DNA from: Candidatus Woesebacteria bacterium
GTDB lineage: Bacteria > Patescibacteriota > Microgenomatia > UBA8517
Reading direction: 5' to 3'
Length of the DNA stretch: 64,000 nt
Assembly (NCBI GenBank): GCA_963716475.1
Contig: OY970314.1
Location: 692,790-756,789 of the forward strand
Under the pieces are notes generated by a model that saw nothing but the letters and a program-made list of their open reading frames with translations, had not been told where the DNA came from and ran no database searches. Below, piece after piece: positions 47,331 through 47,428 of this stretch (the first letter of the stretch is position 1; each line of letters opens with the position of its first letter). A program made the translations under genes and the position numbers.

Positions 47331-47359
47331 TTGACAATGGCCAATTTCAGTGTTATATT
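47331..47359 (+). promoter_or_regulatory. Sigma70-like promoter TTGACA-17-TATATT
   Basis: Consensus -35, exact 17 nt spacer, 5/6 -10; predicted TSS at about 47366. Confidence 0.55.
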
Positions 47360-47365
47360 GATAGC

Positions 47366-47428
47366 AGTTTACACAACTAAGTCGGTTTGCCGACAAAGAA
47401 AAAGGGCCGAAAGGCCCTTTTTTGATGA
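47366..47428 (+). ncRNA. Putative roughly 60 nt sRNA: antisense copy of a tRNA fragment followed by an intrinsic terminator
   Basis: 47366..47388 is identical to 47469..47491 (antisense of tRNA nt 38-60) with 1 mismatch; then gggccgaaaggccc plus T6 terminator. Confidence 0.35.
47402..47428. terminator. Bidirectional intrinsic terminator (also terminates the minus-strand tRNA)
   Basis: aaaaagggccgaaaggcccttttttg; A-run and T-run on either side. Confidence 0.65.

Follow-up and report, generated by a model that had tools for sequence, protein, structure and literature searches.

An extra block of about 1.06 kb (47300-48362) lies between rpsJ and an epimerase gene in the 64,000-nucleotide stretch of Candidatus Woesebacteria bacterium contig OY970314.1 analysed here as a whole (the window). 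It contains a tRNA gene and, close to it, a second copy of part of that tRNA, placed directly behind a promoter-like sequence (47331-47428). The question raised by this locus is whether the copy belongs to a gene with a product and a target of its own, or is what remains of a rearrangement. The original prediction had offered both, an antisense small RNA (sRNA) or a scar that duplicated part of the tRNA. Of the two the sRNA is favoured, and a passive scar is strongly argued against by a promoter that is conserved and by a copy that tracks the variable loop of its own tRNA. We hold with moderate confidence that positions 47366-47423 are a conserved gene for an sRNA of about 58 nt, which has its own near-consensus promoter, is read toward the tRNA and ends at a terminator shared with it, and that this sRNA would silence a tRNA with an off-code anticodon.

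A predicted small RNA gene facing a tRNA

The elements on which the argument turns are the following, in window coordinates:

47331-47359, + strand: sRNA promoter, with the -35 box TTGACA (47331-47336), a 17-nt spacer, the TG of an extended -10 (47351-47352) and the -10 box TATATT (47354-47359)
47366-47423, + strand: predicted 58-nt sRNA, with a single-stranded 5' tail, the hairpin GUCGG-UUUG-CCGAC, the linker AAAGAAAAA, a terminator hairpin and U6 (from folding and covariance model R1)
47366-47388, + strand: 23-nt block complementary to the tRNA, antisense to its nt 38-60 (from a repeat search, 96% identity, and co-variation in four lineages)
47381-47394, + strand: mini-hairpin, GTCGG (47381-47385), TTTG, CCGAC (47390-47394)
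47399-47423, both strands: bidirectional intrinsic terminator A5-GGGCC-GAAA-GGCCC-T6, common to the sRNA (+) and to the transcript carrying gene X and the tRNA (-)
47440-47528, - strand: proposed target, a class II tRNA (long variable arm) with anticodon UUA and a body like that of tRNA-Ser(UGA) (ARAGORN; Rfam RF00005, 59.1 bits)
47469-47502, - strand: target segment within the tRNA, made of 47469-47491 (23 nt) and GUCGG at 47498-47502, the anticodon forming a bulge between the two (duplex prediction)

The promoter, first described as TTGACA-17-TATATT, can indeed be read at 47331-47359, and the TG of an extended -10 is added to that description. In a scan for sigma-70-type promoters it scores 11/12, with the TG present, and nothing else on the + strand of the 64-kb window reaches that score. 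Counting both strands, the window has five sites of this quality as compared with about two in shuffled sequences; three of the remaining four lie upstream of rpoB, tuf and gene X (the gene preceding the tRNA, described below) and one lies inside rpoB, so that consensus promoters seem to be meaningful in this organism. The identity of the copy with the tRNA begins exactly at the predicted transcription start (47366).

From this position the copy repeats 47469-47491 over 23 nt with a single mismatch, and both the repeat search and ARAGORN agree with the earlier identification of this stretch as the antisense of tRNA nt 38-60. The two segments are 103 bp apart, with about 80 bp between the repeats, and the mismatch becomes a G.U wobble in the sRNA:tRNA duplex. 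On the tRNA the block takes in positions 37-39 and the anticodon stem's 3' strand, and then the 5' strand and loop of the variable arm together with 4 nt of its 3' strand. In the sRNA this corresponds to a 5' tail of 14-16 nt, mostly unstructured, followed by the first strand and the loop of the mini-hairpin. The latter is the anticodon stem with its loop reduced from 7 (9) to 4 nt, completed by gccgac at 47389-47394 just as had been proposed. Given that the GUCGG/CCGAC stem is palindromic, the anticodon-stem helix is displayed by either strand. The CCGAC at 47390-47394 is in addition able to pair with the GUCGG of the tRNA (47498-47502), which in the duplex prediction leaves the anticodon in a 5-nt bulge.

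The unit ends, as was first noted, with a GGGCC/GGCCC hairpin and a T6 run, now placed at 47404-47423 (GGGCC at 47404-47408, GAAA, GGCCC at 47413-47417 and T6 at 47418-47423) and recognised as bidirectional. Its inverted repeat has 10-nt arms that are 100% complementary, the GC hairpin being extended by A/U pairs. The A5 run on one side and TTTTTCTTT on the other indicate that it also ends the tRNA transcript. Folding of a 63-nt transcript yields -24.3 kcal/mol, with z = -5.1. No Rfam family was found for the sRNA in a search of 47331-47428 at E of at most 1, in which the sole match was the neighbouring tRNA itself, and a search of the window for further targets of the sRNA tail found none beyond chance.

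Conservation of the unit in four lineages

Relatives of the locus were found through contigs carrying DUF5343 homologues and through a metagenome scan with the tRNA pattern. Four independent lineages of the cassette were obtained: the window, L006 (identical to L013), L011 (taken from a 765-kb contig) and L021. A further locus, L007, has a partial tRNA cut by the contig end. These lineages are well separated, the third-codon identity of the S10 gene to that of the window being 50% in L006 and 61% in L011, and the epimerase identity to L021 being 55%. The promoter spacer and the 3' trailer of the tRNA cannot be aligned among them, which indicates that neutral positions are saturated.

Against this background, all four lineages keep the TTGACA, the 17-nt spacing, a -10 box (TATATT, TATTAT, TATTAT and TACAAT), the start of the complementarity 5-6 nt past the -10, the collapsed loop, the A-rich linker and the terminator. 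The hairpin reads GUCGG-UUUN-CCGAC in all of them, and the terminator is nearly invariant, one loop base excepted. The original prediction had called for a comparison across related genomes, in which it would have been abandoned for a decaying tRNA copy with no conserved promoter; this is not what the relatives display, as promoter, start, collapsed loop and terminator are all kept. The covariance model R1 gives 87 bits in the window and 76-86 bits in L006/L013, L011 and L021, and no further strong match over 305 kb of loci. A weak R1 match at 19874-19932 of the window (- strand; 19.8 bits, E about 0.05) is probably just a similar terminator hairpin.

The distribution of the cassette is patchy. 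It is absent from the closest relatives, L103, L104, L107 and L114, whose S10 is 99% identical and in which the epimerase gene converges on rpsJ and overlaps it; contig look-ups based on the epimerase returned only relatives that do not carry the module. Neither the tRNA nor the sRNA was found in GTDB species genomes, by the tRNA-pattern scan and in S10-based loci, and scans of viral contigs and BLAST searches of phages and plasmids found no copy.

As regards the region upstream of the sRNA promoter, a CTAT-N5-6-ATAG inverted repeat (…CCCATAGTC-TTGACA) is conserved in three relatives, where it abuts the -35 box (L006 1400-1425, L011 1205-1235, L021 1368-1395). In its place the window has a direct repeat, TCCTAT…TCCTAT, at 47308-47326. 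The inverted repeat might serve some regulator of the sRNA as its operator.

Co-variation of the small RNA with its own tRNA

The variable loop of the tRNA differs among the lineages in both sequence and length, and is followed in each by the loop of the copy (GTGTA/GTGTA, ATTGCT/ATTGCT, CGTT/CGTT and CAATAG/CAATAG). Between the sRNA tail and the tRNA of the same genome 14/14 to 16/16 positions match, as compared with 10-13 when the tRNA is a foreign one. Counting of pairs in an explicit intermolecular scheme, comprising 30 pairs in the four lineages, gave 113/113 paired cells, with six pairs changed on both sides (9 cells) and with matching insertions and deletions. The resulting covariation score was reached by 0/500 shuffles, and when the register was slid only 16-43% of cells were paired.

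In agreement, the calculated duplex energies separate cognate from non-cognate partners by about 12 kcal/mol, being -40 to -45 kcal/mol for the former and -29 to -33 kcal/mol for the latter. Once the cost of unfolding both RNAs is taken into account, cognate pairs retain a gain of -12 to -14, and non-cognate pairs one of 0 to -4. The sRNA and tRNA of the window form a duplex of -42.9 kcal/mol with a net cofold gain of -13.8.

On the sense strand only two differences distinguish the copies from their tRNAs: U44 of the tRNA against C in the copy, in three lineages, and G37 against A in L021. Both turn into G.U wobbles in the RNA duplex. The U44/C difference lies 7 nt from the co-varying loop, and the homology on the promoter side of that loop amounts to only 4 nt. 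The persistence of this difference so near to a loop that co-varies speaks against blanket gene conversion and in favour of separate constraints. In the sRNA a C at position 44 would close the hairpin, U44 being normal for a tRNA, and both RNAs seem to be under separate constraints and yet remain complementary.

The tRNA as the proposed target

According to ARAGORN and the alignment to Rfam, the tRNA folds into a regular cloverleaf of the 7/5 type, the acceptor stem having 7 bp and the T stem 5 bp. When aligned to tRNA-Ser(UGA) genes and to the CCA orthologues, it shows the D arm and the anticodon stem of tRNA-Ser(UGA), and the search pattern built for it also retrieved ordinary tRNA-Ser(UGA) in phage-like tRNA arrays. 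The anticodon loop in the window, CUUUAAA, is one base away from the CUUGAAA of tRNA-Ser(UGA). Anticodon UUA (ochre) occurs only in the window; in L006, L007, L011 and L021 the anticodon is CCA, which reads the Trp codon, set in the loops CCCCAAA, CUCCAAA, UUCCAGA and CUCCAGA (tRNAs at L006 1205-1294, L007 1327-1388, L011 1340-1427 and L021 1499-1587). The description of this tRNA as suppressor-like thus stands in respect to its UUA anticodon, and has to be amended in that the body is of serine type and that CCA is the usual anticodon of the family, UUA being particular to this genome.

The stems are maintained by compensation (G49.U65 versus G49-C65), and the 7-bp acceptor stem is perfect. 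The discriminator base is U in three lineages and G in L011; the trailer that follows it always starts with CGA, and no CCA is encoded.

A role as a true suppressor, with recoding of TAA, was considered and ruled out: TAA is the dominant stop, ending 44/65 of the long open reading frames (ORFs) in the window, genes are intact under table 11, and in-frame neighbours are merely adjacent genes. A role as the housekeeping tRNA-Trp of this genome was likewise ruled out by the UUA anticodon, the Ser-like body and the absence of the cassette from the closest relatives. As the proteins of the genome contain Trp, another tRNA-Trp must exist, and this requirement, together with the absence of the cassette from the nearest relatives, makes the present tRNA accessory.

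Seryl-tRNA synthetase (SerRS) ignores the anticodon, and anticodon variants of tRNA-Ser thus mistranslate (PMC9976931; PMC6125640). With an anticodon-blind SerRS presumably charging it, the tRNA would be expected to insert Ser at UGG or UAA. Reading of UAA as Ser should be harmful where TAA is the main stop (cf. PMC6125640).

Class II tRNAs with the same Ser-like D arm and an apparently 7/5 fold were also seen on two soil-metagenome contigs (L009 265-359 and L010 193-286). Their anticodon is UAU, reported as the most common one among allo-tRNAs (PMC7609411), and no copy of the sRNA lies downstream of them.

Proposed mechanism

Pairing would start with the 5' tail of the sRNA nucleating on the weak, A/U-rich variable arm of the tRNA, and would run on along the anticodon stem, over its 3' strand, as far as positions 37-39, giving 23-25 bp. 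The CCGAC of the sRNA could next capture the opposite, 5' strand of that stem over 5 bp, so that the anticodon is pushed out as a bulge. The bulging of the anticodon from the duplex accounts for the collapsed loop of the sRNA and would mean that the switch from CCA to UUA required no change in the sRNA; as modelled, pairing would be independent of the anticodon and specific to the variable loop of that one tRNA. Such pairing is predicted to unfold both of the arms on which a class II tRNA depends for SerRS recognition and for decoding, and a duplex of 23-25 bp is of the kind cut by RNase III, which would presumably provide the nuclease step. In this manner the sRNA would restrain an off-code tRNA, having a Ser body and the anticodon CCA in relatives and UUA here, by sequestration or destruction. 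This tRNA would be co-transcribed with a variable accessory gene just downstream of tuf-rpsJ, and the sRNA may act either on the mature tRNA or on the precursor that joins it to gene X. We infer from sequence that the sRNA is expressed and pairs in vivo, that the tRNA receives Ser and does harm, and that regulation runs in this direction.

Several points weigh against silencing of an off-code tRNA by this sRNA. Both the conservation and the co-variation come from only four independent lineages. The sRNA region is moreover a copy of the tRNA, so that upkeep of identity at the DNA level, by conversion, would mimic the covariation signal. Mature tRNAs are tightly folded and modified, and invasion by the sRNA may perhaps occur only on the precursor. 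Finally, the tRNA of L006 has C33 and C55 and that of L011 has C55, in place of the near-universal U33/U55; some of these tRNAs may be non-decoding, which weakens the rationale of a harmful mistranslator.

A bolder extension, to which we give only a slim chance, is an all-RNA toxin-antitoxin (TA) or abortive-infection-type switch. In it, a stable Ser-charged tRNA that reads Trp codons or UAA would be kept inert by a short-lived sRNA specific to its variable loop. The tRNA would be made constantly behind tuf-rpsJ together with a swappable defence-type gene, and a shut-off of transcription or loss of the sRNA would free it and corrupt translation.

The cassette and its genomic setting

The window is a chromosome segment that carries rpoBC, rpsL, rpsG, fusA, tuf, rpsJ and a large ribosomal protein cluster, and the relatives of its proteins are labelled Woesebacteria or Shapirobacteria (candidate phyla radiation, CPR, or Patescibacteria). 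The rpoB gene is preceded by a perfect 12/12 sigma-70 consensus, TTGACA-16-TATAAT (60883-60856, - strand), and tuf by an 11/12 site at 49930. Within the cassette the order is a near-consensus promoter, the variable gene X, the tRNA, the terminator, the sRNA and the sRNA promoter. The two elements at its far end are:

47531-48262, - strand: gene X, 243 aa, DUF5343, also matching the PADLOC candidate PDC-M34A; 2 nt separate its stop codon from the tRNA
48270-48299, - strand: promoter of the X-tRNA transcript, TTGACA-18-TATACT with TG; the ATG follows 7 nt past the -10

Promoters equivalent to this one are found in L006 and L011, the ATG being 7-9 nt past the -10 in the window, L006 and L011, and the X-tRNA mRNA is, judging from these distances, probably leaderless. 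The start of the tRNA is always 0-8 nt past the stop codon of gene X. The identity of the gene, on the other hand, varies: it encodes a DUF5343 protein in the window, L006 and L007, a protein of 186 aa with a helix-turn-helix and DUF3467 in L011 (1432-1992), and an unrelated product of 87 aa in L021 (1588-1851). Since X differs while the tRNA always adjoins it, the constant part of the cassette is the tRNA, the terminator and the sRNA, and not the protein; the place upstream of the tRNA looks like a cargo slot. A specific partnership between DUF5343 and the tRNA was ruled out, given that X varies by lineage and that a DUF5343 relative, L008, has no tRNA. Searches of PDB and NCBIfam with the DUF5343 protein gave no match, and literature searches found no precedent for DUF5343 or for CPR suppressor tRNAs.

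The block lies in a wider region of variation. With rpsJ at 48363-48671 and rplC at 44235-45032, and inserted genes between them, the S10 operon of this lineage is interrupted at the rpsJ-rplC junction, which forms a hotspot (window 44235-48671; L023 4309-4935; L001 and L002; L103-L114). Depending on the genome it contains the epimerase, a GT87 gene, a gene of 325-337 aa, a DUF7736 gene, a membrane protein gene or the tRNA cassette. The epimerase gene converges on rpsJ with an overlap of about 10 nt, and rplC then has a promoter of its own. Upstream of rplC, at 45078-45140 (- strand), the window has a structured leader whose end is formed by a strong terminator-like hairpin, GAGGCGCCTT-TTG-AAGGCGCCTT, and a T run. 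This leader gives a weak, sub-threshold Rfam match to suhB/mmgR (23 bits), and an analogous hairpin precedes rplC in L006; it may be an autoregulatory attenuator of ribosomal protein synthesis.

Alternative explanations

The alternative that survives best is that the sRNA regulates gene X, the tRNA serving as a tRNA-shaped 3' tag of the unprocessed X-tRNA transcript a constant tag behind exchangeable cargo, through which the sRNA would cause the transcript to be degraded or keep RNase P from processing it, as in type I TA systems or with antisense RNAs that converge on a 3' end. The architecture agrees with it, as no promoter separates X from the tRNA that always follows within 0-8 nt of its stop codon, and as the transcripts of X and of the sRNA, each with a near-consensus promoter, run toward each other and share a single terminator. 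So do the swapping of X among lineages while tRNA and sRNA stay, the match of DUF5343 to a PADLOC defence candidate, and the case of RalR/RalA, where a neighbouring sRNA with 16 nt of complementarity controls a toxin that is not a membrane protein (PMC4041452). However, none of the X proteins resembles a known toxin, the complete and compensated cloverleaf suggests a working tRNA and not only a tag, and L008 has its DUF5343 relative with neither tRNA nor sRNA. We regard regulation of X as plausible, with a minor share of the probability, and it does not exclude silencing of the tRNA.

Less probable is a functionless partial duplication of the tRNA, kept identical by local gene conversion, the promoter-like and terminator sequences serving other ends such as terminating the tRNA and epimerase transcripts. 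The element does, after all, repeat part of a tRNA gene in direct orientation at a distance of 103 bp, conversion between repeats would also yield matched loops and indels, and a tRNA needs a terminator in any case. What such a scar does not account for is the recurrence, in four lineages whose neutral flanks are saturated, of the same boundaries, the same 5-nt loop deletion, an 11/12 promoter and a +1 at the edge of identity. Conversion would, moreover, have neither restored the anticodon loop nor erased the U44/C difference in three lineages, with 4 nt of homology on the promoter side, and L006 has no epimerase gene to be terminated. We therefore consider a scar improbable.

A site acting at the DNA level, in which the tRNA repeat would be an attachment or recombination site for the exchange of X, or the remnant of an element integrated in the tRNA, is very improbable. 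tRNA genes are classic targets of integration and direct repeats mark such events, the genes found downstream of rpsJ change from one relative to the next, as befits a hotspot, and the cassette is patchy. Yet the repeat corresponds to nt 38-60 and does not run to the 3' end of the tRNA, only about 80 bp separate the copies, no integrase or recombinase is encoded in the cassette or its flanks, and the gene that varies is upstream of the tRNA, outside the repeat pair. Neither is there similarity to phages, plasmids or viral contigs, and the promoter and the collapsed hairpin would be left unexplained.

As for the tRNA-sense strand being the functional one, with read-through yielding an anticodon-stem and variable-arm mimic that titrates SerRS or a modification enzyme, the palindromic GUCGG/CCGAC stem on both strands and the retained 5' half and loop of the variable arm speak for it, but it is very improbable given that in this direction it lies beyond a good terminator (GGGCC-UUUC-GGCCC-UUUUUCUUU), that the variable arm ends after 4 nt of its 3' strand so that a full arm is impossible, and that the conserved promoter points the opposite way.

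Relation to known systems and implications

Known bacterial base-pairing sRNAs act on mRNAs and on other sRNAs. Among them, the closest in arrangement to the putative tRNA-silencing sRNA are the sRNAs of the type I TA loci TisB/IstR-1, ZorO/OrzO (PMC3919570) and RalR/RalA (PMC4041452; reviewed in PMC4147584), which likewise have a strong promoter and a terminator of their own, lie beside the target on the opposite strand, and carry at the 5' end a short block (16-23 nt) derived from a locally repeated segment of the target. Unlike in those loci, the block here lies in a tRNA and not in the 5' untranslated region or ORF of a toxin mRNA, and the adjacent protein is interchangeable and not toxin-like. 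We find, in short, a neighbouring antisense sRNA with a short block (23-25 nt, at 103 bp, on the opposite strand) and no toxin-mRNA target, the complementarity falling within the tRNA and in neither the ORF nor the 5' end of X, and for the latter reason the locus is not filed as a member of the type I TA systems. In the Bacillus type I systems TxpA/RatA and BsrG/SR4 a convergent antisense RNA targets its partner transcript within the 3' part. The present transcripts are also convergent, with the antisense directed toward the 3' part of its partner; unlike in the Bacillus systems they do not overlap, since they share a bidirectional terminator and owe their complementarity to a displaced repeat.

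The tRNA itself resembles allo-tRNAs (PMC5389517, PMC7609411) and mistranslating tRNA-Ser variants, engineered or natural (PMC6125640, PMC9258585), in combining a class II body, Ser-like in its D arm, anticodon stem and long variable arm, with a non-Ser anticodon. An ochre-reading anticodon does occur among allo-tRNAs, and for some of these an association with TA or mobile contexts has been hypothesised (PMC5389517, PMC7609411). It differs in its 7/5 fold from the allo-tRNAs, which have 8/4 or 9/3 folds with a 12-bp acceptor branch (PMC7609411), and a further point of difference is its discriminator, U or, in L011, G. A partner antisense RNA was not found described for allo-tRNAs or for mistranslating tRNA-Ser.

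Pairing between an sRNA and the product of a tRNA transcription unit has one parallel in E. coli 3'ETS-leuZ, a tRNA-unit spacer that pairs with sRNAs having mRNA targets and titrates them. In the present case the body of the tRNA, and not a spacer, would pair, and the sRNA appears dedicated to that body. The attachment-site duplications left by integrases resemble this locus in being direct repeats of part of a tRNA near the gene, in a variable region; here, in contrast, the repeat is internal (anticodon stem and variable arm), with no integrase or element between the copies, and it is conserved, promoter-bearing and co-varying. Literature searches gave no precedent for an sRNA antisense to the body of a tRNA, and Rfam has no family for one. 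Within Rfam and the literature searched, the locus would represent a neighbour-encoded base-pairing sRNA with a new class of target.

If silencing of the tRNA by this sRNA is true, a cell can carry a code-breaking tRNA, with a Ser body and an anticodon for a Trp or stop codon, without paying its cost, and a natural, programmable off-switch for a single tRNA would operate through the variable loop. The design rule that it would offer to engineering is an antisense RNA laid over the variable arm and the anticodon stem, with the anticodon bulged out. Should the all-RNA switch also hold, it would be the first case of an sRNA dedicated to silencing a tRNA, and would make conditional recoding possible. 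In either case the finding would bear on the origins of codon reassignment and on mistranslation as a deliberate process, and possibly on modules for defence or addiction in CPR bacteria, whose genomes are reduced.

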